A stretch of 64,000 nucleotides of DNA from an uncultured bacterium (GCA_903910645.1 CAIWAD010000124.1:16445-80444), one strand, 5' to 3'; counted from the first letter of the stretch, positions 11,837 to 41,571 are shown. Numbers and translations: made by a program. The notes: generated from the letters alone by a model not told the origin.

Positions 11837-12022
11837 GGAAGCCCTTTCATCATCATAGGAACCCGCGAGAGCGAGCAAAAATGACGCCAGAAGGTCGGAC
11901 AGGCTTTCTTATTGATAATCATTGGCTTGGCTTGAAAAATCCACGAAGGGATGGGAATTGCCTTGCTCATAGCGCCGGAAATTGAACAGCATGGGGGAGC
12001 AATCCAAAAGAGGGTTCAGGAG

Positions 12023-16005: not shown

Positions 16006-16420
16006 CTATGCAGACTTCTCCGATGACGGGAGGAAGTTCTTGTAATGTTTCTCCGCGCAGCCCGGGCAGATGCCATGGCTGAACTCCGCCTCTGAGTGCT
16101 CCTTCACATAACTCTCCACCGGACGCCAGGTACCTGCGTCGTCCCGGATCTTGTGGCACACACAGCAGATGGAAAGCAGGCCGCGCAGGGTTTTCAAACG
16201 GTGCACCAGCGTGCGCGTGAAGAACAGCACTACCAATGCGCAGCCAATGACCATGGTGGTTTCAATCAGGCCTTCCACCCAATTGACCGGCGTGGCCTGG
16301 AATCCAAAGAGCTTGTGCGGCAGGTCCAGGACCTCGTCCAGCCACATAATGGCCACTACGGCCAGAAAACCCGCGGCTTCCAGCAAGGCCATGCGTCGCA
16401 ACAGACCTGATTCCCGCATG
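16006..16420 (-). CDS. Small two-TM membrane protein with C-terminal Cys-rich CxxC...HGICPGC zinc-ribbon-like motif
   Basis: The likely start is ATG at 16418-16420 with GGAGG 5 nt upstream (MRESGLL...). Two hydrophobic helices are followed by SICCVCHKIRDDAGTWRPVESYVKEHSEAEFSHGICPGCAEKHYKNF. This is the last gene in the cytochrome operon. Confidence 0.5.
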
Positions 16421-16487
16421 TGAACCTCCGCTGTGCCGCCCTTGAAGCCCCCTTGCGAAGGCAGGGCCTCCCAAGACGGACGCAGGA

Positions 16488-18143
16488 TCAATAAGGTGCC
16501 GAGTCGTGGGCGTGGCCGTGGCACATCAAGGTGCAGTTGCCCTGGCTCAGGGATTGGCGCTCCACTTTCAGCCGGCCATCCAGCGGCTCAATCCAGGGTC
16601 GGTCCAGGCGCAGCAGGCCAGGCTGGTCCGGCGAGCCGTGGGGATCATGGCAGGAGGCGCAGGACAGGGCTCCGCGCCCCGTGTGCAGGTTGTGCCAGCG
16701 CCATCCTTCACCGCTGCTGAAGGAGCTTTCCTGATGGCAGGTGAAGCACAGGGCGTTCTCGCGGTCTTCACCTGTGGCGAAAGGCGAGGGATTGAAAGGC
16801 GCCTTGAGCAGGTGTTCGATGTTGGATCCGTGGGGGCCCTGGGGACCGGCGGGATCGTCGCTGCCATGGCAGTCGGAGCAGGTGATTTGGTCCAGGGCGC
16901 TCCATTCCTTTTTCAGGCTGGGCACCTCCGGATTCAGGCCGGGACCCATCACCGGATGGTAGCTACGGTTGCCCAAATCAAAATCCCGCGCCACATCGCG
17001 CTGGCCGGGAAGCGTGTTGCCCGTGAAGCCGTGGCACTTGAGGCAGATTTCGTATTCGAAGTCCGCCACATCCTTTTTCATGCCCAATCGGCTGATGCCG
17101 CTGACACCCTCCATGCTCCCCGGCATGGTGCGCACGCTGGACTGGCTGGACACAGCGTGGGGATTGTGGCAATCCGTGCAGCGCACGGCGCGGTTTTCAC
17201 GCGATCCCGCCAGGAAGCCCACAAAGCCCGACCCGTCCGGCTCCACGGTGCGGGAACCCGTGTGCACGCTCACCGGGTGGGTGAAGAGCTTGTCGAACTC
17301 CGCCCGCATGTTGTTGGGCGAAGGAATTTCCCTGGGCCCATCCACGCTGGCGTCGTGGCAACGGAAACACAGACTGTTCTCCTCCGCCAGCAGGAGGCGC
17401 GGCTGGGGTGGTGATGCGTGGATGCTGTGGCACTGGGCGCAGCTCAGTTCGCGCATCTCCGCGTAGAGGGGCTCGTCCGGGTTGGCGTGCACACTGTGGG
17501 ACCAGCCCTCCAGTCGGTGGCACTCCTGGCAAATGGCCCCCTGGGCGGACTCCACCTTCAGGAACTTGCCACGCGTGTTGTCGTGGGGGTCGTGGCAAGT
17601 GCTGCAGCGGATGCGCTCCCCGCGCAGGGTCATGCCCGAGGTGGCGCTGTCCGGTTTGGCCAGCTCGTGGTTGCGCGACCAGGTGAAGAGGTGAGTGTTC
17701 ATGTGGGTGGGCGCAATCTGCGCTCGTTCACCCAGATCCGTCTCCCGGCTGATGTGTTCGGCGGGATCCGTGGGAAAGGCCCGGGCCACGCTGCCATCGT
17801 GGCAGGCCAGACACAGTTGGCTGCCCGGATCGGCGGGGAAACCAGGCTCCAGATCATCGAGATGGGCACCCAGGGGGAAGGGCCCGCGGGGCAGGCGCCG
17901 GTCCCACAGGGGAATGAGCTGGTCGTGCACGCGGGGTCCGTGGCACACGCGGCAGAGCTGGCGCTCCATGGTGGTGTCGGAGGGCATCCCGGTGTGCCAG
18001 TGGGTCAGGTTGTGGGGTGAGGCCTGCACGCGGGAGGCTTTCACCTGGTCGGGATCGCTGGCCCCTGCCAGCAGGGCAAAGGCGCCCAGGGAAAGCGCGG
18101 GAAGGACGATCAGGGCCGCCCGGCGGAGCGAGAACATCACCAC
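16488..18143 (-). CDS. Multihaem c-type cytochrome (~12 haem-binding motifs)
   Basis: Signal peptide followed by CRVCH, CLACH, CSTCH, CQECH, CAQCH, CFRCH, CTDCH, CLKCH, CSDCH, CFTCH, CASCH and CTLMCH. The start overlaps the upstream OMP stop (TGATG). Confidence 0.85.
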   Translation of the reverse strand: MVMFSLRRAALIVLPALSLGAFALLAGASDPDQVKASRVQASPHNLTHWHTGMPSDTTMERQLCRVCHGPRVHDQLIPLWDRRLPRGPFPLGAHLDDLEPGFPADPGSQLCLACHDGSVARAFPTDPAEHISRETDLGERAQIAPTHMNTHLFTWSRNHELAKPDSATSGMTLRGERIRCSTCHDPHDNTRGKFLKVESAQGAICQECHRLEGWSHSVHANPDEPLYAEMRELSCAQCHSIHASPPQPRLLLAEENSLCFRCHDASVDGPREIPSPNNMRAEFDKLFTHPVSVHTGSRTVEPDGSGFVGFLAGSRENRAVRCTDCHNPHAVSSQSSVRTMPGSMEGVSGISRLGMKKDVADFEYEICLKCHGFTGNTLPGQRDVARDFDLGNRSYHPVMGPGLNPEVPSLKKEWSALDQITCSDCHGSDDPAGPQGPHGSNIEHLLKAPFNPSPFATGEDRENALCFTCHQESSFSSGEGWRWHNLHTGRGALSCASCHDPHGSPDQPGLLRLDRPWIEPLDGRLKVERQSLSQGNCTLMCHGHAHDSAPY

Positions 18144-19932
18144 AGTCTCCTCAGCACATGGATCCAGGCCTCCGTGTCCTTCCGTCCAAAGTGGTCGGGA
18201 TCGCCCACGAAGCGCAGGTCGGTGGTCAGGGTCAGCTTGTTCAGTTCAAACTCCACGAAGGAGCGCAGCCACATGCGCTCGGACAACTGGTCCCGGCCAG
18301 GCCGCCAGGTGCCGCGCACATTCAGCGAGGCAAGACGCAGCGGCTGCCAGCGCAGATGCATGGACAGGCGGTGTTCCAGGTCCACCAGATCCGCCGCCAC
18401 CAGGTGCTGCAATGCCATGGCGCTCAACTGGGCCTGCAAGCGATGGCCCCGGGCTTTCACCCACACTTCGTTCTTCAGCGTGTTGCGCAAAGTGTCGTCG
18501 CTGTAGACCAAATGGCTGCCCACATGGCGGCGCCACTCCAGACGATGTCCGCCCTGCAGGGTGCCATGGGGATTCAGTGTGCTGTTGAAGCTGGTCAACT
18601 GATCCAGCTCCTTCTGGGAAGGATCGGCCCAGGGGGCCACTGTTTCCCGGTCTTGCATGCGGAAGAGCTCCGCTCGCTGCAGGGCGCGCATGCTGAAGCC
18701 CAGCCAGGGCAGGGGCTCCACCGGCGCGATCATCTCCACCGTGGCCCGTCCCACCAGCCCGCGGCCATATTCGCGCGTCTCCGCCCAGCCGCCGCCCAGG
18801 TCGCCGCGCAGGGACAGATTGCGCTTCAACCACAGGGAGCGATCCATGAACCGGGACCAGGACTGGTGTTGGCCCGCGGCCTCCACCGCCGCCGCCATAC
18901 GCGCCAGGGGCTTCACCTGGAAGACCGCCAGGGCCAGCACATCCCGCCTGTGGACAAGATCCTCGTCCGTGATGCGCACGCGCTCGGTGGAGGCGCGCAG
19001 TTCGGCGCCCACTTCCTCCAAGGGCATCCAGCGCCAGGAGGCGTCGGCGTGACGGCGCAGCACATCCCGCTCCTCCAGCTCGGTGAAATCCGCGCCGGCA
19101 TTGATGGACAGGCGATGCTTCCCCCACAAGGTGGTGCGCAGGCGGTTCTGCCCCAGCACGCGGCGCACGCCCTTGCGCTGCACCAAAGCCGAGTTGCTGT
19201 GGACATCCACGCCACCAGGCAGCTCACCCGCCATGCTCAAGCCCGCAAGGCTGCGCTGAAGATCGAAGTCAAGGCTGTCCGCCAGGCCATACCAGGAGCT
19301 CTCGCCCCAGGCACGCGCCACGAACTGGTGCCAGGCGGGCACGCGGTGCTCCACCTCGGCCCGCATGAATCGATGGTCCGAGATGGCCTCGCCATTGAGC
19401 ACGCGACGGTTGCCCGCCACCACTCCCAGCTCGGTGGTGGGCATGGGACGCAGGGCCAGGCGCCCGCCCACGATCAGGTCGCGCAGGCGCAGGCTGTCGA
19501 TGAGGAAGGCATTGGGACGCCGCCAGCCGTGACGGGCGAAGAGTCCCAGTTCCACTCCGCCCAGGGGCGTCCAACCCAGGTCCGCCTGGAACTCGGGCGT
19601 GTAGATGCGCTGCTCGTAAAGACTGTTCTGTGCCATGGTGGCGCCGGTGCGCAGCAGCCAGTCCAGGCCGCCGGCCTTTTGCACCTGGCCATGGGCACCC
19701 ACCACCACCCGCGCCGTGTGCAGGCGCAGGTCCTCCCCGTAGGCCCCGGCGTAGCTGGAATCACTGACCCAGGTGCTGGTGTGGTCAATCCAGCCGTCCA
19801 GGGTGAAGGATCGCGACGGCTGATAGGCGGGCGCCTGCACCCATGTCGGAACCTGGAACGCGCCCAGCGCCGAACCGACAAGGGAAAGGGCGAAGAGCAA
19901 GGCGCAACGCATGTGGCGGGATCCTCTCATGG
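18137..19932 (-). CDS. Outer-membrane beta-barrel protein (putative porin component of a porin-cytochrome complex)
   Basis: The real start is an internal Met: MRGSRHMRCALLFALSLVGSALGA (signal). It runs ~570 aa with alternating amphipathic segments and ends in an aromatic residue (...VLRRLW). No TM helices. The upstream N-terminal extension of ORF 18137..20482 overlaps the NHL gene and was rejected. Confidence 0.6.
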
Positions 19933-20956
19933 CGCCACCTCCCCGGCCGGAAGTTCCGCCGACAGGTAGGGCAGATAGCGATAGGCCTGCACGCGCCGGT
20001 TGTACTGATCCACGATGTAGAGGTGGTCCCCGTGGAAGCAGAGCGCGCTGGGCAGCAGGAACTGGTCGCCCGCCCTGCCCGTGCCGCCGAACCAGTACAA
20101 AAGGGCGCCGCTGCGGCTGAAGACCTGGATGCGGCTGAAGGCGGCATCGCTCACATAAAGATTGCCGTCGCCATCGAAGGCCAGTCCCTTGGGAAACATG
20201 AAACCGCCCGGCGAGTGGTCGTAGACTCCGAAGGAGAACAGGAAGTCGCCCTGGGCGTTGAAGCACTGCACGCGATGGTTCAGGGCGTCCAGCACCCACA
20301 GTTGACCGTCGGGATCGCTGGCCACCGCCACGGGATGCAGGAACTGGCCCTGCGCGCCGCCTTCTCCACCCAGGGTGCGCTGCCAGCGGCCCTGGCCGTC
20401 GAAGCTCTCCACCACATGGCGGCCCGCATCCACGATGTGCAGCAGCGAGCCATCCCAGTGCATCTGTCCCGGCCTCTTCCATCCCTTGGGCGAAGACAGT
20501 TCGCCCTTCACATTGCCGGATCCGGACTCCAACAGGAAGACCTTGCCCCGGCCCGCGTCGCTCATGGCGATGCCGGCGGGAAAGGCGGCCACGCCCGTGG
20601 GCGTGGCGAACAAGGGCGAGGCCATCACTTCGAACGGTCGGGGCGAGCAGCCCTCGGGGCTAAGTCGCAGAAGGCGGGACAAATCGCCGTCGCACACCAG
20701 CACGCGGCCATCTGCATCCACATCCACATCGGTGGGGCGTCCCACGCTGGCGGTGGCGCAGCTGCCCGTCACCAGGCGCAGGGCCTTCATGCCCAGGCCT
20801 CCGTCCAGTCGCACCTGGGAAAGGACATCCCCCTCCTGCAGGTAGAGCGTGTCCGTGCCGGCGGCCACCAGGGGTCGCGGCCCCTGATGCGTCACCGTGG
20901 CGCATCCCGCCGCCAGGAGCAGGGAAAGGAAAAGGACAGGCAGGCGTCGCCTCATG
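19927..20956 (-). CDS. NHL-repeat beta-propeller lipoprotein
   Basis: Internal start MRRRLPVLFLSLLLAAGC (lipoprotein signal plus Cys). NHL-like repeats include GQFLHPVAVASDPDGQLWVLDALNHRVQCF and FMFPKGLAFDGDGNLYVSDAAFSRIQVF. The first ~340 aa of ORF 19927..21987 were rejected as a spurious extension. Confidence 0.7.
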
Positions 20957-23165
20957 GCAGCACCCGCTTCTCGCTTGAGTGGTAATAGCGGTACTTCCAC
21001 AGGGCCTTGTCTCCATGGCAATCGGCGCAGACGGCCTCGCTTGTCTCCTGGCGCAGGAAGTCCGGCGAATGTTCGCCGCCTCCCTCGGGGTGGGCCACAT
21101 GGGGGTTGTGGCAACTGGTGCAGTCCACGCGTCCAATGGCGCCGTCCGTGCGGCCCTCGGCATCGAAGAGCGGCATGGTGCGTCCGTCGGGTCGCGTCTG
21201 GCCCGCAAGGGTCATGTACTTCTGCGGATGGCCCCACGCCTCGGGTACATGGCTGCTGGCGCCCTGCTCGCGGTGGCAGGAGAGGCAGTGCCGGGCGCCC
21301 GGACTCCAGTTCTCCGCCTTGCGCTCCAGGCTTCCATCCGGCCGCACGGCGGCCACGCTGTCCATCTGGGCATTGTCCAGGCTGCTGGCGATGATGGCCC
21401 AATCCGACACGGCGCGGTGGGTGGTGTGGCAGGCCCGGCAGGCGCTCTCGTTGGGCCTGGTCTCGCTCAAGTCGTGGGCGCTTCCCAATACACGGGTCTC
21501 GCCGGAGTGGCAGGCGGAACAGAGTTGCGCGCCGGAGTTGGCCATGCGCAGGAAGGAGCTGTTGTCGTCGCCCTTGGCGTTGGCCTGCCAGGTGGGCGGT
21601 CCGGCGGGATTCCAGTGATGTGGCTCGTGGCAGGACTCGCAGCCCACCAGCAGATCGGCCGGTTCGGGTGTGCCGTCCGCAGGTCTCCAGGTGCGCAGGT
21701 TCTCTGCGCGGTAACCCGGCAGCTTGCTGCCCTTGGGCATGGCCCTGCCCACCGGATGGCCGTGCTGGCCCAGGGTGGTGGCCCCGTGCTTGCCGGTGCC
21801 CTCGTGGCAGCTCAGGCACAGGCTGGTGAACTCGGATGCTTCCGTCCGGGCATGGCCATCGCCAAATGCCTGCTGCTTGTGCGTGTTGTGGCAGGAAGTG
21901 CATTGGCCCCGGCTGGGCTCGCTCCAGTTGAAGGAGTTGTGGTCGGAGACCAGGGTTTGGGCCTGCTCGTTGTGGCAGTTGATGCACAGTCGGCCGTTTT
22001 CGTCATCGGGCAGGCGCAGGAAGCTGCCCAGGGCATCCCCATCCTCATTGCCCGGGCCCGGCTTGTGCCCTGGCATGGCGCTCCAGCGGTGGGGGTCGTG
22101 GCAGGTGGTGCAGCTCATGCCGCCCTCACGCAGGGGAAGGCGCACATTCTGCTCCTTCACCGGACGGTCCAGGGGATGGCCGTGCCCCACCCAGCTGATG
22201 GCGCCCGCCGCGCCCTTTTCCTGGTGGCAACTAAGGCAACGGGCGTCCACGCCATCCTTCACCACATCCGCGCCACGCCCGCCGGGCAGGGGCCAGGCCC
22301 ACATGGCCGGACCATTGCCGCCATGGGTCACATGGCAGGATGCGCAGGCGTCGCTTTGCCCGGCCGTGCGCCTCGTGTTGCCAATAGGCAGATTCCCGTG
22401 TTCTTCCTTCAGGTGGTGGTCGCTTTGCAGCACGGCGAAACTGGGCTCGTGGCAGCTGCGGCACAATTGGGTGCGGTCGGCGCCATCCACCAGCTTGGCC
22501 CGCTTGTCGCTGTGCATGTTGTGGCAACTAAGGCATTCCACCGTGCCTGTGGACACATGGCGTCCGGCCAGCTCCTGTGGCAGTGCCTGCTCCAGCTTGG
22601 CATGCAGGGGATGGTCTGTGTTGCGACGGGCGTGGTCCGCGTGGCACTTCAGGCACAAGGCGGAATTGTCCGCTTCCGCGCGCAAGAAGGGCACATACTG
22701 GAACTCGCGCTCCATGCGGTTCATGTGGGGCGTGTGGCAGCTGCCGCAGTAGATGTCCCCCTTGCGATCCAGGGGAAGGCCGCTGGCGGACACCGCCGCG
22801 CCATTGCTGGGCTTGTGGAAATGCGGATCGTCCTTCTGGAAGAAGCGCCGGCTGTCCCCCACATAACCGTCGTGGCAGGACCAGCACATGTCGCGGCTGG
22901 CCACGCGGGCTTCGCGGCCGTCGATCATCACAGGATGATCCACCGGCGGCAGCAGGACGGCCATCTTCTCATAGCCTTCACCCCACTCCACATGGCAGAT
23001 CACGCACTCCTTGGAGCGGTCCATGTGCAACTGGGCGTCCGCGCGACCGGCTGGGCCCAATCCAAGGGCAAGCCACAGGCCCGCGACTCCGCAGGCCAAG
23101 GTGGCGCGAAGCAGGCGGGCTTTCAGTCTCCGGGAGTCAAGATCCATGGGCGAAAATCCATTCAT
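20952..23165 (-). CDS. Multihaem c-type cytochrome (~18 CxxCH)
   Basis: Start MNGFSPMDLDSRRLKARLLRATLACGVAGLWLALG (signal). It has 18 CxxCH motifs (CVICH ... CADCH) spread over ~730 aa. Confidence 0.85.
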   Translation of the reverse strand: MNGFSPMDLDSRRLKARLLRATLACGVAGLWLALGLGPAGRADAQLHMDRSKECVICHVEWGEGYEKMAVLLPPVDHPVMIDGREARVASRDMCWSCHDGYVGDSRRFFQKDDPHFHKPSNGAAVSASGLPLDRKGDIYCGSCHTPHMNRMEREFQYVPFLRAEADNSALCLKCHADHARRNTDHPLHAKLEQALPQELAGRHVSTGTVECLSCHNMHSDKRAKLVDGADRTQLCRSCHEPSFAVLQSDHHLKEEHGNLPIGNTRRTAGQSDACASCHVTHGGNGPAMWAWPLPGGRGADVVKDGVDARCLSCHQEKGAAGAISWVGHGHPLDRPVKEQNVRLPLREGGMSCTTCHDPHRWSAMPGHKPGPGNEDGDALGSFLRLPDDENGRLCINCHNEQAQTLVSDHNSFNWSEPSRGQCTSCHNTHKQQAFGDGHARTEASEFTSLCLSCHEGTGKHGATTLGQHGHPVGRAMPKGSKLPGYRAENLRTWRPADGTPEPADLLVGCESCHEPHHWNPAGPPTWQANAKGDDNSSFLRMANSGAQLCSACHSGETRVLGSAHDLSETRPNESACRACHTTHRAVSDWAIIASSLDNAQMDSVAAVRPDGSLERKAENWSPGARHCLSCHREQGASSHVPEAWGHPQKYMTLAGQTRPDGRTMPLFDAEGRTDGAIGRVDCTSCHNPHVAHPEGGGEHSPDFLRQETSEAVCADCHGDKALWKYRYYHSSEKRVLP

Positions 23166-23188
23166 GGGGCCCTCCGGCGCGGGCTGTG

Positions 23189-24133
23189 TCAGGGAATGTC
23201 GAAGCGGATGATGCGGCTGGCGCGGCTGTCCACCACCCACCACGAAGCTCCGCAACACACAATGGCCGTGGGACCCTGGAGTTGCCAGGGCTTGCCCTTC
23301 AGCATCAACTGGCCCTGGCTCTGGGCGTACTCGTCATAGGCGTGCACCATGCCCAGGTAGCTGTCGGTGATGAGCAGGCCCTTGCCGTTCCAGCAGGCGC
23401 AGGCGCCCTTGGGACGATAGAGACGCTCGCCATCGGTGCCAAAAGAGCCCACCATGCGGTCAAAGTTCCCCAAGCGCGTGTAGGCCTGGATGCGGCCGCC
23501 CAGCACATCAATCACCATGAAGCCGTTCATGTGGCGGGACAGGATGCCCGGAAACTTGAACTCCTCCACGCGATCGCCCGGCTTGCCGTCGGGCAGGCTC
23601 ATGCCCGCCATGCGACGCATGGGGCGGATCTCGTCGGCGCCCCGGCCAATCACTTTCAACAGGGCGCCGTCGTAGCTGATCATCAGCAGGCGATGGTTGT
23701 CGTTGTCGGAGACCACCAGCTTGTCCTCCAGCGCCAGCACATCCACCGGATCGCAATTGGCCGGAAGCTTGATGGTCTGCACGGGACGCCCGTCCAGGGT
23801 GGTGACGAAAATGGAGCCGGCATCCGGATCGCTCACATAAAGGCGGTCCTTCCAGATATCGTTGCCCACCGGGTTCACAAAACCATCGTGGCGGATTTCA
23901 CGCATCAGGGCGCCCTGGGGGCTGATGACCACCACGCGCTTGTTCAGGCCGTCCACCACATAGGCGTTGCCGCGCTCGTCGGCCGCCAGGTCCGTGGGAT
24001 AAGTGGTGCCGGCGGCCACATCCTCCAGAATGCGCACATCCACCGCGCCGGCCACGCCGGCCAGCATCAGAAGCAGGATCGGGAGGAGCAGGGCTCTCCG
24101 ATCAGTACGCGGGCGGCAGGAAGAAGACTTCAT
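23189..24133 (-). CDS. NHL-repeat beta-propeller protein (secreted)
   Basis: Signal MKSSS..RRALLLPILLLMLAGVAGA. Repeats include YPTDLAADERGNAYVVDGLNKRVVVI and DRLYVSDPDAGSIFV. Confidence 0.7.
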   Translation of the reverse strand: MKSSSCRPRTDRRALLLPILLLMLAGVAGAVDVRILEDVAAGTTYPTDLAADERGNAYVVDGLNKRVVVISPQGALMREIRHDGFVNPVGNDIWKDRLYVSDPDAGSIFVTTLDGRPVQTIKLPANCDPVDVLALEDKLVVSDNDNHRLLMISYDGALLKVIGRGADEIRPMRRMAGMSLPDGKPGDRVEEFKFPGILSRHMNGFMVIDVLGGRIQAYTRLGNFDRMVGSFGTDGERLYRPKGACACWNGKGLLITDSYLGMVHAYDEYAQSQGQLMLKGKPWQLQGPTAIVCCGASWWVVDSRASRIIRFDIP

Positions 24134-26683: not shown

Positions 26684-27481
26684 CTCCAGCATGGGGAAGT
26701 GGAAGGGTTCGTAATTCTCCACCATGCCCACGGCGGCGGAGTGCGTCAATTCGTGGATGCGCGGTTGGCTGAAGCCCAGCGCGACCCATGGGAAAGCGGC
26801 TTCCGGCGTGTGGCAGGCCAGGCAGGCGCTGGGCGTTTTGCCCACATGCTCCTCGGCGAACTCGCGGAACTGGGCCTCGTCGATCTCCAGCCCGCTCAGC
26901 GCGTCGGCGCGGAACTGCTTGTAGCGCTGGTCATCGTAGGGCGTGAACAGCAGGGTGTTGCCGCCTGCCGCCGTGAGCACAGGGACGATGCGGCTGATGA
27001 AGTTGTGCCGCCCGGACAGGACGCCATCCTTCCCCCGCTCAAGTCCATAGGGGCCCAGGGCCGTGACCGTGTTGTCCGTGTCGAAGGAGGTCCACTCCAG
27101 CGAGGTGCGCGCGCGCATGGTGTCGTCCAGATGGCAGGCCAGACAGCTCATGAAATGGCTGTGCTGGTTGTAGAAGGCACGGCGCTTGGGATCCTTGGTG
27201 TGCGGGAAAAGCGGGTGGCATGTCAGGCAGGCCTCCTGCTGGCCCAGGGGCAGCAGGCTGTGCACCTCGATGTTGTGGAAGTGCTGCTCCTGGTTGCGGT
27301 AGTCCTCGAACCAGGTCTCCAGCTGCTCCACATGGTCCGTGAAGTGGCGCCTTCCCTGCTTTTCCTCCTCGTGGGCCTTGTGGGGACGGTTGGTCATCCA
27401 CACCAGCCAGGCGGACACAGCGCTGCCGATGACCAGGGCCGTAAGGCCGTAGGCCACCCGGCTGAAGGTTCTCATGCTCAT
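26678..27481 (-). CDS. Membrane-anchored tri-haem c-type cytochrome
   Basis: N-terminal TM anchor, then CLTCH, CLACH and CLACH. The stop overlaps the start of the downstream fused c-b-c gene. Confidence 0.7.
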   Translation of the reverse strand: MSMRTFSRVAYGLTALVIGSAVSAWLVWMTNRPHKAHEEEKQGRRHFTDHVEQLETWFEDYRNQEQHFHNIEVHSLLPLGQQEACLTCHPLFPHTKDPKRRAFYNQHSHFMSCLACHLDDTMRARTSLEWTSFDTDNTVTALGPYGLERGKDGVLSGRHNFISRIVPVLTAAGGNTLLFTPYDDQRYKQFRADALSGLEIDEAQFREFAEEHVGKTPSACLACHTPEAAFPWVALGFSQPRIHELTHSAAVGMVENYEPFHFPMLEE

Positions 27482-28263
27482 GCGTCACCATCCCGGCCGG
27501 CGGCGCCGTCCTGCTTGTCGTCGTCGTCGTGGCGTCGCACACGGCCACGCTTCAACTGCTCAAGGATGTCCTCCAGCTCGCGGGGATGCTCGTGCATCAT
27601 CTCCTCTTCGCTAAGGGTGCCGCGGTACCACACCTTGTTGGCGGGCCACACGCGGGGATTGAAGTGCACGTTGTAGAAGTGCCAGATGACAATGGCCAGG
27701 AAGGCCAGCAGGGCCTCGTCACTGTGGGCCACATAGGCGATCTGGATGACCTCTGAGGGGAACCACTGGCCGCTGGCCTCCGGATACCACAGCAACAGGC
27801 CGCTGCCCGCCATGATGAACATGCCCCAGAACACCGCCCAGTAGTCGAATTTTTCGATGTAGGAGAAGCGGTGGAAGCGGGGACGCTCCTCACTCAGGAA
27901 AAGGAAGTAGCGGATGTTCGTGGCAATGTCCCGGGCATCCTGCAGGTTCGGCAGCAGATGCATGCCGGAAAGGGGCGTGCGGTTGCGCACGATGTTGAAG
28001 AACACATAGAACACATGGACGGCGAAATCGGCGATCATCACCACCGCGGCCACGCGATGAATGGTGCGCACCGTGTCGATGCCCCCGAAAAGGTTGATGG
28101 AGTGCGACCAGAAGGCGGTGTCCGGGAACTTGATGGGGAAGCCCGTCACCACCAGGACAATGAATGGCACAAACATGAAGATGTGCTGCAGGCGCTGGCT
28201 GAGCGAGAAACGCACATACTCCCGCCTTCCCCCCACCACGCGAATGCGATCACTCACTCTCAT
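27478..28263 (-). CDS. Di-haem cytochrome b membrane subunit (FdnI/HydC/PF01292-like)
   Basis: The real start is the internal ATG (MRVSDRIRVVGG). Four TM helices carry His ligands (TIHRVAAVVMIADFAVHVFY; IVIWHFYNVHF). The upstream 112 aa of ORF 27478..28599 are Ala/Arg/Pro-rich and were rejected. Confidence 0.7.
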   Translation of the reverse strand: MRVSDRIRVVGGRREYVRFSLSQRLQHIFMFVPFIVLVVTGFPIKFPDTAFWSHSINLFGGIDTVRTIHRVAAVVMIADFAVHVFYVFFNIVRNRTPLSGMHLLPNLQDARDIATNIRYFLFLSEERPRFHRFSYIEKFDYWAVFWGMFIMAGSGLLLWYPEASGQWFPSEVIQIAYVAHSDEALLAFLAIVIWHFYNVHFNPRVWPANKVWYRGTLSEEEMMHEHPRELEDILEQLKRGRVRRHDDDDKQDGAAGRDGDA

Positions 28264-29296
28264 GGCGGCCTCCTCCCGAGAAGCGCCCGTGGACCCAGCG
28301 GCCGAAGTCCAGCAGGATGTGGCTGAAGAGCAGGGCCATGGTGATGGCCGTGAGCAGGATGAAGCCCCAGGTGACCACATAGACCACCGGATTGCTCTCC
28401 ATGGTGGGCTTGCTGTGGATGGCCGAGCGCGCGAACTCAATGCTGGGGCTGATGTGGCAGCCCGTGGTGCCGCAGGTCTGGCGGATGTTCGCCGTGGACA
28501 GCGTGGAGGCCGGGTCGTCCTGGGGCAGCACAAGATGACTGGTGTGGCAATCCGCGCAGTTGGCCACGCCATCCAGGCCGCGCCGCATGGCCTTGCCATG
28601 GAAGTGGTGCTGGAAGCCTTCCACCTGCGTGCTGCTCACATTCACGCTCTCCATCAGCGTGGCGTCGCCGTGACAGCTTGAGCACAAGCGCACGATGTCC
28701 AGCGAGTTCTCCGCGCTGCGGTGGGAAGTGTGGCGGTCAATGTGCTGGATGACGCCTTCCAGGGACTTGCCGTCGTGGCAGTTGGCGCAGTGCTTGGCCT
28801 GCTCCTGCACGCGCTGGTCCGGGGCCGCCATGCGATGGCTGCCGTGGCAGTACTTGCAGCCGGGCTTGGCGGCGTTGGTTTCGGGATCGTCCTTGGGATT
28901 CTGCCCGTGCACGCTCATGGCGTGGGCTTCCACTTCGCCGCGGTGGGAGAACACCGTCAGCTCGAAGGGGCGGTTCACATGGCAGGTCTTGCCGCAGTCC
29001 ACCTTCTGCACCACCTGTGGATGCGGAAACGCATCGATGTCCGCGTGGCAGTCCCGGCAGCCGATGCCCTTGTGGGAGCTGTGCATCACGGTCTCGGCGC
29101 TCACCTCGTAGAGGCGGAAACGGCCCTTGTCGTCGTGGCGCGACAACAGGGGCAGCCCATGGCAGAGTTCGCAGTTCTCCGAATCCGCCAGACGCGGATT
29201 GGCCAGCGAAGACGCCAGCGGCAGCAAGGCGAGAAGGGCCGGGAGCAGGCCCCTGGCCAGAGAGGCCAAGGCGCCCCTACAGGTCGTGACAGGCAT
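28250..29296 (-). CDS. Multihaem c-type cytochrome (~8 haems) with C-terminal TM anchor
   Basis: Signal peptide, then CELCH, CRDCH, CGKTCH, CKYCH, CANCH, CSSCH, CADCH and CGTTGCH. The C-terminus has a hydrophobic helix (VVYVVTWGFILLTAITMALLF). Immediately upstream of the cytochrome b gene, so this looks like a split Cbc-type module. Confidence 0.8.
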   Translation of the reverse strand: MPVTTCRGALASLARGLLPALLALLPLASSLANPRLADSENCELCHGLPLLSRHDDKGRFRLYEVSAETVMHSSHKGIGCRDCHADIDAFPHPQVVQKVDCGKTCHVNRPFELTVFSHRGEVEAHAMSVHGQNPKDDPETNAAKPGCKYCHGSHRMAAPDQRVQEQAKHCANCHDGKSLEGVIQHIDRHTSHRSAENSLDIVRLCSSCHGDATLMESVNVSSTQVEGFQHHFHGKAMRRGLDGVANCADCHTSHLVLPQDDPASTLSTANIRQTCGTTGCHISPSIEFARSAIHSKPTMESNPVVYVVTWGFILLTAITMALLFSHILLDFGRWVHGRFSGGGRHESE

Positions 29297-30218
29297 AGCA
29301 GATCCGCTCTTTTGCCGCCCGCAGGAGCTTGGAGGCGGGGGCGCCTCCGCCCGAGCAGGCGGGATTTGGGCTGTGACAGGTGGCGCAGGCCACCGTTCCC
29401 CCGGGTCCCAGGGGCAGGATCACGCCGCTCTGGGCCTGGAACCGTTCCAGCGCGGCGGCGGTGTTCATCTTCAATCTGTTGTGCAGCACGGAGCGTCCCA
29501 CATGCTCCCGCTCATGCTTCACATCCTTGTGGCACTTCAGGCACAGTTCGCCCTGGGGCAGCTGAAGGCCCTTGCCGGGCTGGGCCGCATCGCCGCCCTC
29601 CGCGCTGTGGCAGTACCAGCAGGCCTTGTTGTCCTCGGACTGGCCGTGGGGATAGGTCTGCTTGTAGAGTTCGCGCGTGTGGCACTGGTAGCAGAAGTCC
29701 GTCTCCCGGGGCCATGGTCCGCCACGCAGCATGCTGCGGTTCTCCCGCGCCACGCGATAGCTGGTGGTCTCGTCGCAGTTGATGGCGTGGCAGGTCAGGC
29801 AAGTGCCACGGCCTTCCTTCAGGCGCGCATTGGCCGGACTGGGCGCCTTGGAGCTTGCCCCGGAGAAATCCGTGGGATGGATTTCACGCAAATGGGCCTG
29901 GGGGTCGTGGCATTCCACACAAGCGCCGTCCCGCCAGTTGGCCGCCGCCGGAGTCTGCCCGGGCGTGTGGCATTGGTCGCAACGGTTGGGCCGGCCGTGG
30001 GGGTTGTCCTTGCCAGGCAGAGTCAGGTGCTGCTTCTGGGCGGGCCTGGGTGCCGGGGCCGCCGCACGCGCGGGCACGGGTGGCTTGCACAAGCCACAGG
30101 ACGGTTTGGCGCAGTCATCATGGGTGGCCGGGGCAGGAGCCGCTCCCAGCTGGGCACCAAGCAGCAGCGCCAGCAAACCGACAACCCAGGAACCTGACCA
30201 CGAGCGTTGAACCATCAC
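29277..30218 (-). CDS. Periplasmic octahaem c-type cytochrome
   Basis: Start MVQRSWSGSWVVGLLALLLGAQLGA. Motifs CDQCH, CVECH, CLTCH, CYQCH, CWYCH, CLKCH, CATCH and CYACH. Confidence 0.8.
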   Translation of the reverse strand: MMVQRSWSGSWVVGLLALLLGAQLGAAPAPATHDDCAKPSCGLCKPPVPARAAAPAPRPAQKQHLTLPGKDNPHGRPNRCDQCHTPGQTPAAANWRDGACVECHDPQAHLREIHPTDFSGASSKAPSPANARLKEGRGTCLTCHAINCDETTSYRVARENRSMLRGGPWPRETDFCYQCHTRELYKQTYPHGQSEDNKACWYCHSAEGGDAAQPGKGLQLPQGELCLKCHKDVKHEREHVGRSVLHNRLKMNTAAALERFQAQSGVILPLGPGGTVACATCHSPNPACSGGGAPASKLLRAAKERICYACHDL

Positions 30219-30222
30219 GCCA

Positions 30223-31410
30223 TCACTCCAGCGGATAGGATAGGCCTTGCTCCTCCCAGCGATTGGGAAGGGGCAGGTCGTCATGGATGAGCGCATTGGC
30301 GCCGAAGCGCAGGCTGAGCAGGTCGTAGCCCAGCACATTGAGGTAGAAACCCACGAAGGCGCTGGTCTGGCCCGTCCAGCAGTAGAGGACATTGGTGTTG
30401 GCCGGATGCAGGGCGCTCAGGTCCTGATTGGTGGTCAGGCTGCCCGGGCTAAGCTGATAGGCGCCCTGGACATGGCCGTACGTGAAGTAGTCGTCCTGCA
30501 GCCAGTAGTTGTGGATGATGAAGGAGCCGGGGTTGTCCATGACCTCGTAGGCGTTCACAGCGTTGGCCGTGAAGCCCTCCGCCAACACCGCCGACACCCG
30601 CGCCTGCAGAATGGCCTGCCCCGAGGCCAGTCCCGTGGACAGCTCGGGCCAGTCGAAGGTGGGAAGGGCGGGACTGTTGCCGTAGCTCATCACCGATTCG
30701 TATGCGTTGCTGATGCCTGCATTCCAGGGCCCTGCCAGCAGGTCGTTCCACCCCGCCATGCCCCATTGCAGACTGAAGGCGTCGTGGCCCAACATGCGCA
30801 ATGCCATGGTGGCGAAGGCCGCCACCTGTCCCGTGTCACAAGCCAGCAGCACCGGCAGGCCGCCACTGTTCTGCCCTTCCACCGTGGACACCAGCGTGGT
30901 AAGGCTGGCATTGCGAGCGCCGGGAATGTGCCCTGCCAGGAAGGCCTGGCTGCTGCGGAGATCCACCACGAAGTACTGGCCCAGATTGGCGTTCACCGTG
31001 GTGGCAGGCAGGATCCAGTTGGTGGCCCAGGTGGCGAACTGGGCGTCCGTGATGGCCGCCAGGCGGTTGAATTCCCCGCGCACGGAGATGGAGGTGGAAC
31101 GGCTGGCGCTGTCCACGCCATCGCTGACCTCCACCAGGATCGTCACCTGCCCGGAAGCCGGTGCCTGCCACTGGATGTTGGCCGTGCTGCCAATGGCCAG
31201 ACCATCAACTGTCCAGGCATAGGTCAAGGCGTCGCCATCGGCGTCGCTGGCCGTGCAGGCAAGAGTGATGGTCTCGCCGGGATCGGGGGTGGGATCGCTG
31301 GCGGTGACACCGCTGATGACAGGCGGGCTGTTGCCCTCCTCAGAAGAGGAACAGCCACCCAAAATGAGGGCGGCCATCAGGCCCGTGACGAAAATGCGTG
31401 CGCGACCCAT
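30223..31410 (-). CDS. Lipoprotein with N-terminal PKD/Ig-like domain and two rhodanese-like domains
   Basis: Lipobox ILGGC. The PKD-like segment reads TASDADGDALTYAWTVDG. The rhodanese domains contain YFVVDLRS...AGHIPGA, with Cys loops LLACDTGQVAAF and LYCWTGQTSAF. Confidence 0.7.
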   Translation of the reverse strand: MGRARIFVTGLMAALILGGCSSSEEGNSPPVISGVTASDPTPDPGETITLACTASDADGDALTYAWTVDGLAIGSTANIQWQAPASGQVTILVEVSDGVDSASRSTSISVRGEFNRLAAITDAQFATWATNWILPATTVNANLGQYFVVDLRSSQAFLAGHIPGARNASLTTLVSTVEGQNSGGLPVLLACDTGQVAAFATMALRMLGHDAFSLQWGMAGWNDLLAGPWNAGISNAYESVMSYGNSPALPTFDWPELSTGLASGQAILQARVSAVLAEGFTANAVNAYEVMDNPGSFIIHNYWLQDDYFTYGHVQGAYQLSPGSLTTNQDLSALHPANTNVLYCWTGQTSAFVGFYLNVLGYDLLSLRFGANALIHDDLPLPNRWEEQGLSYPLE

Positions 31411-31434
31411 GGCCGATCCTTTCCGGAAATGAAT

Positions 31435-31458
31435 CCGGGCCGCCCGAGGGCGGCCCGG
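31435..31458 (-). terminator. GC-rich hairpin (possible attenuator or terminator) between the two rhodanese paralogs
   Basis: CCGGGCCGCC and GGCGGCCCGG form a perfect 10-bp stem with a 4-nt loop. On the minus-strand transcript it is followed by AUUCAUUUCC, which is only weakly U-rich. Confidence 0.3.
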
Positions 31459-31471
31459 ACACGAGGTGGAC

Positions 31472-32431
31472 TTAGTTGGTTTCCAGCTCGTAGTTGAAGC
31501 CGGTGGCGGCCCAGGCGTTGGCCGGCATGGTGTCGTGGTACAGCGCGTTGGCGCCGTACTTCAGGCTAAGCACATCATAGCCCAGGGCGTTCAGGTAGAA
31601 ACCCACCAGGGCGCTGGTCTGGCCCGTGTAGCAGTAGAGCACCTGCTGGTCGGCGGGATCCAGGGCGTCCAGGTCCGTGGTGGTGGTCAGGTTGCCCGGA
31701 GTCAGCTGGTAGGCGCCGTCGATGTGGCCAACGGCGTAGTGGGCGGCGCTCCAGTAGTTGAAGATCTGGTAGTCACCCGGAGTGGCCATTACGGTGGCTG
31801 CGGTGACGATGTTGGGCGTCAGGCCTTCAGCCAGGATGGCGTTCACGCGGGCCTCCAGGATGGCCTGGCCATCGGTGAGGCCGGTGTTCAGTGCAGGGAA
31901 CTCGAAGGTGCCCAGGGCGGGGCTGGCGCTGGTGACCATGTTGCCCACATAGGCGTTGCTGATGCCCGTGGCCCAGCTGGTGTTCAAGGCGTCATTCCAA
32001 CCGCCCATGCCCCACTTCACGGAGAAGGCGTCCGTCCAGCCCAGCATGCGCAGAGCCATGGTGGCGAAGGCCGAAGTCTGGCCCGTGTAGCACACCACCG
32101 CCACCGGCAGGTCGCTGGTGTTGTTGGTGGCGATGTTGTCGGCCATGGTGGTCAGCGTGGCGTTGTGGGCGCCGGGGATGTGGCCGGCAGCGTAGTCCGT
32201 GGCGCTGCGCAGGTCCACCACATAAAGGTTGGCCAGGTTGGTGTGGACATAGTCCGCGCCCTGCACCCAGCCCGTGGTCCAGCCGGCGAAGCCCGTGTCC
32301 GTGAGCTCGCTCATGAGGGCGAACTCGTCCACCGGTGTGGTATTGTCGTCGTCGTCATCCTCGGAGCAGCCGGTGAAGACGGAAAGGGTGAGCGCCACGG
32401 ACAAAGCCAAGGCGAGCTTCTGGAACTTCAT
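31472..32431 (-). CDS. Lipoprotein with two rhodanese-like domains (paralog of 30223..31410)
   Basis: MKFQKLALALSVALTLSVFTGC lipoprotein signal. LYVVDLRSATDYAAGHIPGA. Cys loops VVCYTGQTSAF and LYCYTGQTSAL. Alignable to the neighbouring gene over the full rhodanese region. Confidence 0.7.
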   Translation of the reverse strand: MKFQKLALALSVALTLSVFTGCSEDDDDDNTTPVDEFALMSELTDTGFAGWTTGWVQGADYVHTNLANLYVVDLRSATDYAAGHIPGAHNATLTTMADNIATNNTSDLPVAVVCYTGQTSAFATMALRMLGWTDAFSVKWGMGGWNDALNTSWATGISNAYVGNMVTSASPALGTFEFPALNTGLTDGQAILEARVNAILAEGLTPNIVTAATVMATPGDYQIFNYWSAAHYAVGHIDGAYQLTPGNLTTTTDLDALDPADQQVLYCYTGQTSALVGFYLNALGYDVLSLKYGANALYHDTMPANAWAATGFNYELETN

Positions 32432-32531
32432 GCGAACTCCTGTGTTTTGGAAAGTTGGGTCCATTGACCCATTGGTGACGCGCCCGTGGCCGCCGACCCT
32501 CCCAAGCCCGCGGCCCGACCCGTTTCAACCA

Positions 32532-34094
32532 TCAATGTCTGTTCCAATACCTCGTGATGCTGTCGTCCACTGCAGTGGCCCGGTTGGCCCGCACATACTC
32601 GTCGGGGTCCTCCAGACCCGTGACGGACGACTTCAAACTGTCCAGATGGCTCAGCCACAGGAAGCGCCTGGCGTTGGCCTCCTCGTGCGGGCCCTGGACA
32701 TGGCAGCTCATCCAGCAGTCTCCCATGCTGTAGGCAGGGTTGGACAGCGCCACGGCCGTCTGGGGCGTGAAGCGCTGGATGTTGTGGGGACTGGAGTACT
32801 CCCAGGTGGGGAAGGAGGACCAGTTCTGCAGACTGGGCCAGCCCCACTCGCGAAAGCCATCCTTGATCACCGGGATGTGGCGCACGGTGACCCACTCCTC
32901 ATGCTCCACCGGATGGGTGGAAATTGCGCCTGTGTTGCGACCAATGCGGAAGTCAGTGTACTCAGAATACCCCTCGGGGTCTCCACTGTTCCACACGCCG
33001 CCGGAGTGGCAATTCAGGCAGTTGGTGTAGGGCTGGCTGTGGCACACGGTGCAGGACAGGCCCTCTTCCATGGAGCCTTCCCCCGGCCAGTGATAGGCGT
33101 GGAAAAGGTTGTCCTCCGCCGCCAGGCTGTGGCAGTTGGTGCAGCGCGGCATGCCTTCCACTTCATAACGGCTGGTGTAGTCCGTGCGGCCGTCCCCGTG
33201 CAGATTCTCCTGGTGGCAGAAGAAACAGTCGAAGCCCAGCTCATTGTGCACATCGGGGCGATTGCCCTCGTGGTGGCCGTTGTAGTCGTTGCCCACGCGG
33301 CTGCCATGGCAGGCGGTGCAGTTGTTTTCAATGTCAGGCGTGCGCTTGAAGCGATGGCTGTCCAGCAGGCCGCCCTTCACACTGGTGGGACGGGACACAT
33401 GGCATTGGCCGCAGGTGGCGTGGCAGCTGGAACATTCCCGCGCATGGCCTTCCTTGAGCAGCTCGGGACAATCCTCCCAGCTTTCGTAGCCGGCGCGCAG
33501 GGCGATCTTCGCCTTTTCGCCCCACAGCTGGCTGTGCATGGACGTGGCATGCAGGTCCACGATCTGGGCATGGCAACCCGTGCCGTTGCAATTCAGCTCC
33601 GGCTGGGTGCTGGGATCCCGCGTGATGCCCTTCACCGTGGGCTTTTCACGAATGACGCGCCCGTTGCTGGTGTAGCGCACCTCGAACTGGTGGGCCGCCG
33701 CCATGGCCACCCACAAATCATCCCGCGAGCCACTGGCCGCCACCACCTGATCCACGCCGCCGTGGCAGGTGACACATCCCACAGCCGCATGGTTGGGGTC
33801 AACTTCGGCGTAGCTGTCGGCGTCGATGAACACTTTTGCATAAGGCTCCAACGGAGCCACGGCGCCGCCTCAGCCACCACCCGCGCTTTCACTGGCCGCC
33901 TCTTCCACCGCCAACAGACGCAGATAGTCCCGGTTGGTGTGGCAGCTCTCGCAGCTAAGGGTCACCGCGTCGCCCGACGAGGCGGGATCCGCGGTGATGG
34001 GGTCGATGCGTTCGCACCCCTGCTGCAAGGCGGCAAAGAGGCTCCCCCACAACAGAAGGCGCCACCATGCCTGTGAAAATGCGCTTGTCGTCAT
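32532..34094 (-). CDS. Multihaem c-type cytochrome (~11 haem motifs) interrupted by a single in-frame TGA (33870-33872)
   Basis: ORFs 33870..34094 and 32532..33860 are in the same frame, separated by one TGA. The first carries signal peptide MTTSAFSQAWWRLLLWGSLFAALQQGC and CESCH. The second carries 10 haem motifs with no signal. The TGA sits in the codon run GGT GGT TGA GGC GGC. Confidence 0.7.
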
Positions 34095-34284: not shown

Positions 34285-34312
34285 AATATAGGCGGCGAAG
34301 GCGCAGAGTCAA
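34285..34312 (-). promoter_or_regulatory. Candidate sigma70-like promoter for the cytochrome operon (minus strand)
   Basis: The minus strand reads TTGACT-N16-TATATT (reverse complement of 34285-34312). It lies ~190 nt upstream of the first cytochrome start, in the only AT-richer intergenic stretch of the region. Confidence 0.3.
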
Positions 34313-36557: not shown

Positions 36558-37003
36558 CGCTCCAGCATGCGCTTGGCGCGAGGTGCACTGGCGCCTGCGG
36601 GAAAGCGGCCCAACAGGGCGCGGGCCTCGGAACAGGCACGATCCCGCTCACCCAGATTCTGCCAGCACAGGGCCAATTTCAGGCGGGCATCCTCTTCCTT
36701 GTTGGACTCCTCGTGCTCCAGCACTTTCAGGAAGCAACCAAGGGCATCCTGCCAGGCCTCGCGGGCATAGTGGGACTCGCCAAGCCAGTAGTAGCAGTTG
36801 TCCTGCAAGTCGGCGGGCAGGGAGGCGTCCTGCAAGAGACTCTCAAAAGACTTGCGGGCGCGATCGTTCCGGTGGGCATCGAAATCCGCCACCGCCTGCT
36901 CATAGCGGGCCAAGGCCGTGTTTCCCTTCACGGCGGGCGTGGCGGCATGGGATTCCACCATCAACATGGCGGCAATCGATAGGAGGAGCACATGGTGACG
37001 CAT
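36545..37003 (-). CDS. TPR-repeat protein (YbgF/CpoB-like C-terminal domain)
   Basis: The real start is an internal Met with signal MRHHVLLLSIAAMLMVESHAA. TPR-like helices follow (ARYEQAVADFDA..., DNCYYWLGESHYAREAWQDALGCFLKVL). Overlaps the start of the M23 peptidase gene by 13 nt. Confidence 0.5.
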   Translation of the reverse strand: MRHHVLLLSIAAMLMVESHAATPAVKGNTALARYEQAVADFDAHRNDRARKSFESLLQDASLPADLQDNCYYWLGESHYAREAWQDALGCFLKVLEHEESNKEEDARLKLALCWQNLGERDRACSEARALLGRFPAGASAPRAKRMLERCRP

Positions 37004-41444: not shown

Positions 41445-41571
41445 GGATGATCTCACGCTTGGTTGAACGACCGGTGAATCTACCACTGCCACCGGCAAGT
41501 GGACCCACAAGTGGAAGGGGCCACCGCGGCGGCCCCTTCCAAAGATGCAGGCATCGTCAACGCCGCTCGAG

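Follow-up and report, generated by a model that had tools for sequence, protein, structure and literature searches.

Here, we describe a gene row in a 64,000-nucleotide stretch of DNA from an uncultured bacterium (GCA_903910645.1, CAIWAD010000124.1:16445-80444; referred to as the window, with all window coordinates counted from its first letter). The row comprises 13 to 14 co-directional minus-strand genes, g01 to g14, that run from 34094 down to 16006, and its first gene, cytA, almost certainly encodes a selenoprotein, a multiheme cytochrome c that is paired with a tandem-rhodanese lipoprotein. An original prediction, made from the sequence, placed a row of heme-rich minus-strand genes at the same coordinates and interpreted it as a conduit for extracellular electron transfer (EET); open reading frame (ORF), motif, and Pfam analysis confirm the row itself. 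The ∼70 c-type heme motifs that it counted agree well with the 64 CxxCH and 7 variant (CX3-4CH) motifs that we find summed over the cytochromes. The other ORFs between 12 and 38 kb contain no heme motif, g14 excepted with one CxxCH, and the density of heme motifs in the gene row far exceeds chance. By contrast, the original prediction overlooked an in-frame TGA at 33872..33870 that interrupts g01.

g01 (cytA; 32532..34094, minus strand), read through this TGA, encodes a 520-aa lipoprotein with selenocysteine (Sec) at position 75 and with 9 CxxCH, one CX4CH, and one CX3CH motif. The TGA (33870..33872, minus strand), in the local context ...SAGGG-TGA-GGAVAPLEPY, divides cytA into a 74-aa N-terminal piece with the signal peptide, the lipobox Cys, and the first CxxCH, and the remaining 445 aa with ten further heme motifs. 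Four observations argue that the TGA encodes Sec. First, the codon is conserved as TGA and is never another stop codon. Scanning one genome per species, we identified at least 585 species genomes with a cytA relative; among the best 80 loci of these genomes, the codon at the position of Sec75 is TGA in 50, TGC or TGT in 25, and TAA or TAG in none, while 5 loci lack the residue. Second, Cys takes its place in homologues: P0034, P0122, P0126, P0134, and P0136 have G-C-GG at this position, and the Sec/Cys codon lies within G-x-GG in all 75 loci with TGA or TGC/TGT. Third, a hairpin resembling a selenocysteine insertion sequence (SECIS), with 6 bp and an apical GUU in the window (33842..33860, minus strand), starts 11 to 13 nt after the UGA and covaries. 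In an alignment of 51 sequences covering 42 nt from the UGA onward, 83% of the cells are paired, and 7 of the 8 pairs have changes on both sides; none of 500 shuffles reached the observed values, and controls with a slid partner gave 39 to 52% pairing. The apical loop is G-U-rich. Fourth, the product of the post-TGA ORF alone would have 10 heme motifs yet no signal peptide and, therefore, could not mature as a c-type cytochrome.

A metagenome-assembled genome (MAG) of Candidatus Delongbacteria has the same split into calls of 74 and 442 aa at the same TGA, and its hairpin carries a compensatory pair (GGCUC/GAGCC to GGUUC/GAACC). Other carriers of the TGA form include the MAG GCA_041675285.1 and the Marinimicrobia genomes of L007, L013, and L016. 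Likewise, most cytA homologues in the protein database are ∼442 aa long and start exactly past the Sec position, while the full-length ones carry G-C-GG; on this comparison, the ∼442-aa proteins are what gene callers yield when they stop at the TGA. A reading with a true stop codon and two genes, of 74 and 442 aa, was rejected in view of the missing downstream signal peptide, the constancy of the TGA, the Cys variants, and the covariation of the hairpin. Rfam returned no SECIS family, either for the window at gathering thresholds or for the TGA region at E ≤ 10; the only Rfam match was a chance miRNA match on the opposite strand. Several cytA homologues (P0030, P0076, P0080, P0084, P0111, and P0120) are named “thiosulfate/3-mercaptopyruvate sulfurtransferase” by JGI even though they are multiheme cytochromes, and annotation of the cytA family in databases looks systematically wrong.

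The partner with which cytA is most consistently paired is a rhodanese with two active sites. g02 (rhdA; 31472..32431, minus strand) and g03 (rhdB; 30223..31410, minus strand) both encode tandem-rhodanese lipoproteins with PF00581 matches. In rhdA, the domain is matched in two stretches and both active-site Cys are present; rhdB is 53% identical to rhdA and has a weak, sub-threshold PKD/Ig-like match at its N terminus. Of the 74 evaluable loci whose cytA has Sec or Cys, 72 have an adjoining tandem-rhodanese gene, which lies directly upstream of cytA in L031 and directly downstream in the others; none of the 4 evaluable loci that lost Sec/Cys has one next to cytA (Fisher p = 1e-5). In these 4 loci (L020, L029, L030, and L073), the residue is gone from cytA, having given way, for instance, to VPGDG in L020 and to an Arg codon (TA-R-GG) in L073, and the downstream rhodanese is gone too. 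This pattern suggests that Sec/Cys and the rhodanese were lost together as one functional pair. Both active-site Cys, C114 and C267, are invariant in all 66 partner rhodaneses, with the motif C-Y-[ST]-G-Q in both domains. The adjacency in 72/74 vs 0/4 loci and the invariance of the two Cys together argue that cytA is functionally coupled to the rhodanese.

The partner rhodaneses also hold information about where this pair might act. The lipid Cys is present in 65 of 66 partners, and in 36 of 44 it is followed by an acidic stretch with at least two Asp/Glu within six residues (C-SEDDDDD in rhdA of the window). In Bacteroides, the lipoprotein export signal CS(D/E)3 marks surface-exposed lipoproteins (PMC6222051), and the resemblance of the acidic stretch to this signal hints that the rhodanese lipoproteins are at the cell surface. 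In Delongbacteria-like relatives, a single lipoprotein of 609 to 612 aa with four rhodanese domains replaces the two genes (L003 11438-13267; L005 11594-13429; L006 11686-13464), and rhdA and rhdB of the window look like a split or duplicated version of this four-domain rhodanese.

The family alignment of cytA contains 11 conserved heme motifs and 10 conserved His residues outside the motifs. One heme may, thus, lack a distal His ligand, as is the case in catalytic multiheme enzymes, and because of this excess of heme motifs over His, cytA looks more like an enzyme than a wire. Residue 75 is the sole conserved nonheme Cys/Sec of cytA and lies in a Gly-rich, presumably flexible loop. Pfam gave only three sub-threshold multiheme matches for cytA, and no NCBIfam model matched at E ≤ 0.01, including neither the ExtKL model NF040886 nor the OTR model TIGR04315. 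ExtKL (MccSep) is a Sec-containing multiheme polysulfide reductase that is essential for respiration of elemental sulfur (S0) and is encoded beside the rhodanese lipoprotein ExtH and the barrel ExtI (PMC13510729, PMC6148476). Searches of the PDB sequences with phmmer and with the family profile gave no significant relative of cytA; MccSep (9wt8/9wt9) appeared at E = 4, and OTR was absent from the profile search. The fold was compared using a heme-free model of P0034, a Cys homologue 46% identical to cytA (pLDDT 72), and the moderate match of this model to OTR would place cytA, in structure, no closer to OTR than a remote relative. ExtKL, a GSU2204-type barrel, and OTR-family cytochromes are included in a 2026 review that covers the selenoproteins of prokaryotes (PMC13188914); the undecaheme lipoprotein with G-U-GG has no counterpart in this review.

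Downstream of the rhodanese genes follow an electron carrier and two modules predicted to reside in the inner membrane. g04 (cytB; 29277..30215, minus strand) is a secreted cytochrome with 8 CxxCH and a putative periplasmic carrier. g05 (cytC; 28250..29296, minus strand) has 8 heme motifs (6 CxxCH and 2 variants) and a C-terminal transmembrane anchor by motif and Pfam analysis, g06 (27478..28263, minus strand) is a membrane cytochrome b of the FdnI/HydC type (PF01292, E 2.6e-16), and g07 (cytD; 26678..27481, minus strand) is a cytochrome with 3 CxxCH and an N-terminal anchor. g08 (24102..26681, minus strand) is a c-b-c fusion with 9 + 2 heme motifs; 8 heme motifs are followed by PF01292 at residues 355-522, and the protein has 5 to 6 hydrophobic segments. 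g08 is colinear with the three preceding proteins (g05 32% identical to residues 28-328, g06 37% to 348-564, and g07 28% to 653-856) and, by this colinearity, is a fused paralogue of the split g05-g06-g07 set. Whereas widespread c-b fusion proteins share 30 to 35% identity with the c-b part of g08, the full c-b-c fusion is rare and occurs in ∼17 clusters. A multiheme c domain followed by an FdnI/HydC-like b domain in g08 and in g05+g06 fits the CbcL-like inner-membrane cytochrome b/c that had been predicted, and g08 is a candidate CbcL-like quinol/quinone module.

The CbcL/MtrH/MtoC family is widespread, with homologues in reducers and oxidizers and in both directions of electron flow (PMC6295460). 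The operon could, therefore, run oxidatively: cytA would oxidize rhodanese-bound sulfane sulfur, thiosulfate, sulfide, or extracellular Fe(II), and, as in TsdA/Sox or MtoC-type systems, the electrons would reach the quinone pool, here through the c-b modules. No feature distinguishes the family members of reducers from those of oxidizers (PMC6295460), OTR-type enzymes are reversible in principle, and the His/Cys-type multiheme TsdA oxidizes thiosulfate, as cited in work on MccSep (PMC13510729). Nevertheless, we give this reading a slim chance. Among respiratory enzymes, Sec is known to serve S-S chemistry in reductive catalysis (MccSep), the operon has no linked Sox, Dsr, or oxidase genes within the window, and the relatives come mainly from anoxic or sulfidic sites by their MAG names, which is weak evidence. 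We favor electron flow in the reductive direction, from quinol toward sulfane sulfur.

The distal part of the row encodes a candidate outer-membrane module. g12 (18137..19930, minus strand) encodes a 597-aa protein that ends in Trp (...RRLW) and that AlphaFold models as a ∼28-stranded beta-barrel (pLDDT 77.6). Strand prediction had been proposed as a check, and the model supports the predicted outer-membrane barrel with a C-terminal aromatic residue. Foldseek matched the g12 model to generic large outer-membrane barrels only (ushers, TonB-dependent transporters, and LptD; TM score ∼0.3), and MtrB was not among its top 50 matches. Neither Pfam nor NCBIfam returned a match for g12. Its close homologues number 17, 22 relatives came out of a profile search across 1.84 billion representatives, and no Pfam domain was found in the seven barrel-length relatives scanned. 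On these searches, g12 is an orphan family that is not demonstrably related to MtrB/PioB. The ATG start codon of g13 (cyt11; 16488..18137, minus strand), a secreted cytochrome with 12 heme motifs (11 CxxCH and one variant), overlaps the stop codon of g12 by one base, and g13 also follows the barrel in L001, L006, and L020. g10 (cyt18; 20952..23165, minus strand) is a secreted cytochrome with 18 CxxCH. Neither g10 nor g13 is a lipoprotein, and both have partial similarity to the DmsE/MtrA family, below the family cutoff. Two NHL beta-propellers (PF01436), namely the secreted g09 (NHL1; 23189..24133, minus strand; 32.8 bits) and the lipoprotein g11 (NHL2; 19927..20955, minus strand; 71.3 bits), exceed the Pfam cutoff of 20. 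The propellers had been counted as a departure from described systems; however, NHL proteins beside multiheme genes are already a known pattern (PMC10376724). With a wide barrel next to a multiheme cytochrome, g12 and g10/g13 are predicted to conform to a porin-cytochrome layout.

This layout argues for a classical EET conduit to metal oxides or electrodes, in which CbcL-like oxidases would feed g12 with g10/g13, Fe(III)/Mn(IV) would be reduced outside the cell by cytA, and the rhodaneses would play an accessory part. The barrel lies between large multiheme cytochromes, a lipoprotein cytochrome is present, g10/g13 are partially similar to the DmsE/MtrA family, and NHL proteins accompany EET cytochromes elsewhere (PMC10376724). 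We consider this explanation unlikely because metal reduction leaves the cytA-rhodanese pairing and their co-loss unexplained, outer-sphere metal reduction needs no conserved Sec/Cys, Pfam, NCBIfam, and profile search show no relation of the barrel to MtrB/PioB, and ExtKL proved to be a polysulfide reductase (PMC13510729). Thus, of the EET conduit originally proposed, the architecture that reaches from the quinol pool through the periplasm to the outer membrane stands, while a metal-oxide endpoint is not supported by the Sec/Cys-rhodanese core and the function of ExtKL as a polysulfide reductase (PMC13510729). By analogy, the terminal chemistry is likely reduction of sulfane sulfur or a chalcogen, and not of Fe/Mn oxides.

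The genes of the row are tightly packed. Intergenic distances range from −32 to +100 nt, and most neighbors overlap, by 1 to 32 nt. It had been stated that 14 genes are overlapping or at most 70 nt apart; the overlaps are as described, the largest gap (g01-g02) is 100 nt, or 67 nt with an alternative start codon, and membership of g14 is doubtful. The sole strong sigma-70-like site upstream of the operon (TTGACT-16-TATATT; 34312..34285, i.e., 34285..34312 on the minus strand; 10 of 12 consensus matches) is ∼190 nt upstream of the cytA start and is a consensus match only; no convincing terminator was found inside the operon. As anticipated, Pfam profile searches identified PF01292 in g06/g08, PF00581 in g02/g03, PF01436 in g09/g11, and multiheme families in the cytochromes. 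NCBIfam assigned no operon protein to a named family above cutoff. g14 (16006..16419, minus strand) encodes a small protein with two transmembrane segments and a C-terminal Cys4 motif; its single CxxCH falls fortuitously within a C-x2-C...C-x2-C motif, and it has no Pfam or NCBIfam match. A g14 homologue (53%) in L001/L002 (14369-14779) is separated from cyt11 by an inserted DNA-alkylation-repair gene, and g14 is, therefore, probably not part of the operon.

The order cytA, rhodanese, cytB, c-b-c module, NHL1, cyt18, NHL2, barrel, cyt11 is kept in the Delongbacteria-like L001/L003, L005, and L006, and the same order from cytA to cyt11 in the Marinimicrobia L007, L011, L013, L016, and L020, with L020 itself lacking the downstream rhodanese. 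In the full operons, g04 is conserved after the rhodanese gene and g09 is conserved in synteny. Across genomes with the full operon, the barrels are only 21 to 35% identical and the operon proteins 21 to 45%. Preservation of the full order at such barrel identity suggests one functional unit, and together with the overlapping start and stop codons, gene order kept at 21 to 45% protein identity argues for the operon as one unit. The alternative, two independent adjacent systems of which one is a sulfur reductase made up of cytA and rhodanese in the periplasm and the other a porin-cytochrome conduit supplied by quinol oxidases of its own, draws on the fact that the cytA-rhodanese pair mostly occurs without barrel, NHL, and cyt18 within 10 kb. 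The pair is found without the barrel module in Ignavibacteria (including Melioribacter roseus), Calditrichia, Bacteroidota, Eisenbacteria, KSB1, and others, sometimes with CbcL-like genes near. This alternative appears quite unlikely to us given that the full order is kept at low identity in Delongbacteria-like and Marinimicrobia genomes, that the reading frames overlap, and that the one promoter-like site found is upstream. The Sec/Cys cytochrome and the rhodanese lipoprotein are the sole module conserved across hundreds of genomes.

The prediction of an FCB-group-like organism agrees with the labels of the relatives, which are Delongbacteria and Marinimicrobia. Elsewhere in the window, an RCC1-repeat protein (4306-6306, minus strand) has a weak match to Por_Secre_tail, the type IX secretion sorting domain (E 2e-4, below cutoff), which is consistent with the FCB group. 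The closest relative in the genome collection, L005 (DYSB01000006.1; 72% identity in cytA), carries the record label “Acetofilamentum sp.” (Bacteroidaceae), which looks doubtful because other close relatives are labelled Candidatus Delongbacteria. Upstream of the operon (38208-41510 and 34350-37189, minus strand) are genes for an IcmF-like fused isobutyryl-CoA mutase with B12-binding, MeaB, and mutase domains, an M23 peptidase, and a TPR protein; these neighbors are also present in a Delongbacteria MAG (L003), and synteny, thus, reaches beyond the operon. The G+C content of the window is 63 to 68%, which results in many spurious ORFs. A 1,238-aa ORF (8162-11878, minus strand) has gene-like codon composition (GC3 0.82) and no Pfam match. 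At ∼20 kb from the operon lies a gene (54637-56493, plus strand) for an anion permease of the SulP family that includes a STAS domain. Two genes adjacent to each other (45947-51663, minus strand), for a RecD-like helicase and a 1,332-aa UvrD/PD-(D/E)XK helicase-nuclease, are RecBCD/AddAB-type in appearance and unrelated to the operon.

We favor, with about even confidence, a reading in which the operon encodes a quinol-to-sulfane-sulfur chain that ends in a Sec-dependent multiheme reductase acting on polysulfide, elemental sulfur, or a thiosulfate-derived persulfide. The co-lost cytA-rhodanese pairing, the possibly OTR-like fold of the homologue model, and the precedent of ExtH/ExtI/ExtKL in Geobacter lead us to this reading. 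Here, we infer what the substrate is, which way the electrons flow, what Sec does, and that cytA and the rhodaneses are located at the surface. We suggest that both CbcL-like modules, the split g05-g06-g07 as well as the fused g08, oxidize quinol in electron exchange with the menaquinol pool and that g04, g10, and g13 with 8, 18, and 12 hemes, respectively, would carry electrons through the periplasm. Together with the barrel g12 and the NHL proteins g09/g11, g10/g13 could enable electrons to cross the outer membrane, and the electrons would be received by the 11-heme lipoprotein cytA. g02/g03, with two active-site Cys each, would hold sulfane sulfur as persulfides. Sec75 on the Gly-rich flexible loop of cytA would then attack the S-S bond, and the Se-S intermediate would be reduced by a nearby heme with release of sulfide.

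Alternatively, the physiological substrate could be a selenium or tellurium oxyanion that is respired or detoxified. MccSep also reduces selenite, rhodaneses handle selenium as well, and selenite and tellurite reduction in Geobacter needs ExtI (PMC13510729, PMC5877670). We see a slimmer chance for this than for any other alternative: MccSep prefers polysulfide as a substrate (PMC13510729), about a third of the family members have the Cys form, and the family has a very wide distribution that extends to marine Marinimicrobia, which live where selenium oxyanions are scarce. The reading that we favor, reduction of sulfane sulfur, also has a bolder version. In this version, cytA and the rhodanese would be an undescribed, very widespread Sec/Cys sulfane-sulfur reductase of the FCB superphylum, with oceanic Marinimicrobia, Calditrichota, and Ignavibacteria included, that arose independently of MccSep. 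In Delongbacteria and Marinimicrobia, it would be the last reductase, at the cell surface, of a new porin-cytochrome conduit based on the orphan 28-strand barrel, and selenium chemistry would allow these bacteria to respire insoluble S0 extracellularly. We regard this version as less likely than not.

Several points weigh against a Sec-dependent sulfane-sulfur chain. The cytA family is described here from sequences and models, and its substrate is deduced from the rhodanese linkage, the analogy to a nonhomologous enzyme, and a moderate fold match, which comes from the model of P0034 and not from cytA of the window. No tRNA-Sec, selA, selB, selC, or selD is present in the 64-kb window, the part of the genome that was searched, and some members of the cytA family are without the Sec/Cys residue altogether. 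The lipobox of cytA in the window, LQQGC, is noncanonical. CbcL-type modules are bidirectional (PMC6295460). Finally, in most genomes the cytA-rhodanese pair has no barrel module nearby, so the two parts can work apart and cytA may be simply periplasmic.

To our knowledge, the sulfur respiration of Geobacter-type reducers without a molybdoenzyme route had no molecular basis until the MccSep work of 2026. The MccSep family is found mainly in Desulfobacterota and Nitrospirota. Outside these phyla, the cytA-rhodanese pair would put a nonhomologous Sec/Cys multiheme enzyme with a rhodanese into 585 or more species genomes, among them those of Marinimicrobia, which are abundant in the sea. If cytA reduces polysulfide, S0, or thiosulfate, then the sulfur-cycling potential of oxygen-minimum zones, sediments, and the subsurface needs reannotation. 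Moreover, if our reading is correct, the prokaryotic selenoproteome gains one family; hundreds of truncated or misnamed calls, i.e., the “thiosulfate sulfurtransferases” and the 442-aa ORFs without signal peptide, would be corrected; and, with its NHL propellers, the orphan barrel would make up an outer-membrane conduit of a new type. In that case, the cultured M. roseus, which has the Cys form, would be a tractable experimental entry point. A literature search, incomplete in its coverage, returned no description of a cytA-rhodanese system, including under multiheme-rhodanese systems of Marinimicrobia/Delongbacteria and in Melioribacter multi-omics.

Comparison with known systems places the operon among several partial relatives in architecture. 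In the CbcL/MtrH/MtoC proteins, an N-terminal multiheme c domain is combined with an FdnI/HydC-like cytochrome b as in g08 and g05+g06, a likeness of architecture; the operon differs from them in adding a membrane-anchored 3-heme domain, either separate (g07) or fused (g08 C terminus), and in carrying the module as a split and as a fused copy. MtrCAB and the Geobacter Pcc systems, such as OmbB-OmaB-OmcB, also have a large barrel gene flanked by large secreted multiheme cytochromes, and a lipoprotein multiheme cytochrome is likewise present in the operon. However, the operon barrel is of an orphan family, two NHL propellers are interleaved, and the candidate outer component would be a Sec enzyme with rhodaneses. 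OTR of Shewanella oneidensis (PDB 1sp3; TIGR04315) has 8 heme motifs compared to 11 in cytA, which has no TIGR04315 match and has a lipoprotein N terminus with heme 1 and the Sec loop. In Dethiobacter, Otr-like cytochromes beside rhodanese genes have been proposed as sulfur/thiosulfate reductases (PMC10376724). The Otr/SirA-like DealDRAFT_1917 of Dethiobacter alkaliphilus adjoins rhodanese-domain genes and, like several cytA homologues, is misannotated as a thiosulfate sulfurtransferase (PMC10376724); it differs from cytA, to which it is likened by description, in being octaheme, in its Gram-positive host, and in that no Sec has been reported.

The closest parallel is ExtHIJKL/MccSep of Geobacter sulfurreducens (GSU2937-2936), and the likeness that had been drawn between the rhodanese lipoprotein and ExtH of the extHIJKL cluster is apt. 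In both cases, one cluster encodes a rhodanese lipoprotein, an outer-membrane barrel, and a Sec-containing multiheme cytochrome (PMC13510729, PMC6148476), the in-frame TGA is followed by a SECIS hairpin, and the family includes Cys-type homologues. Nevertheless, the searches detected no relationship in sequence between ExtKL and cytA (no NF040886 match; E = 4 or nothing in the PDB searches with phmmer and the family profile). ExtKL has 5 heme motifs, with a His/Cys-ligated heme 2, and its Sec is in a C-terminal Ig-like domain (DGUP), whereas cytA has 11 heme motifs and its Sec is in an N-terminal G-U-GG loop. Also, cytA is a lipoprotein, the rhodanese of the operon is tandem with two active sites and its gene is duplicated, and the barrel is predicted to have ∼28 strands compared to 21. 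In addition, quinol modules, NHL propellers, and cytochromes with 18 and 12 hemes are encoded within the operon itself. By these comparisons, the operon is analogous and not homologous to ExtHIJKL/MccSep. Altogether, the cytA-rhodanese pair would represent a second, independently evolved Sec/Cys multiheme-plus-rhodanese system, set in a larger trans-envelope operon.

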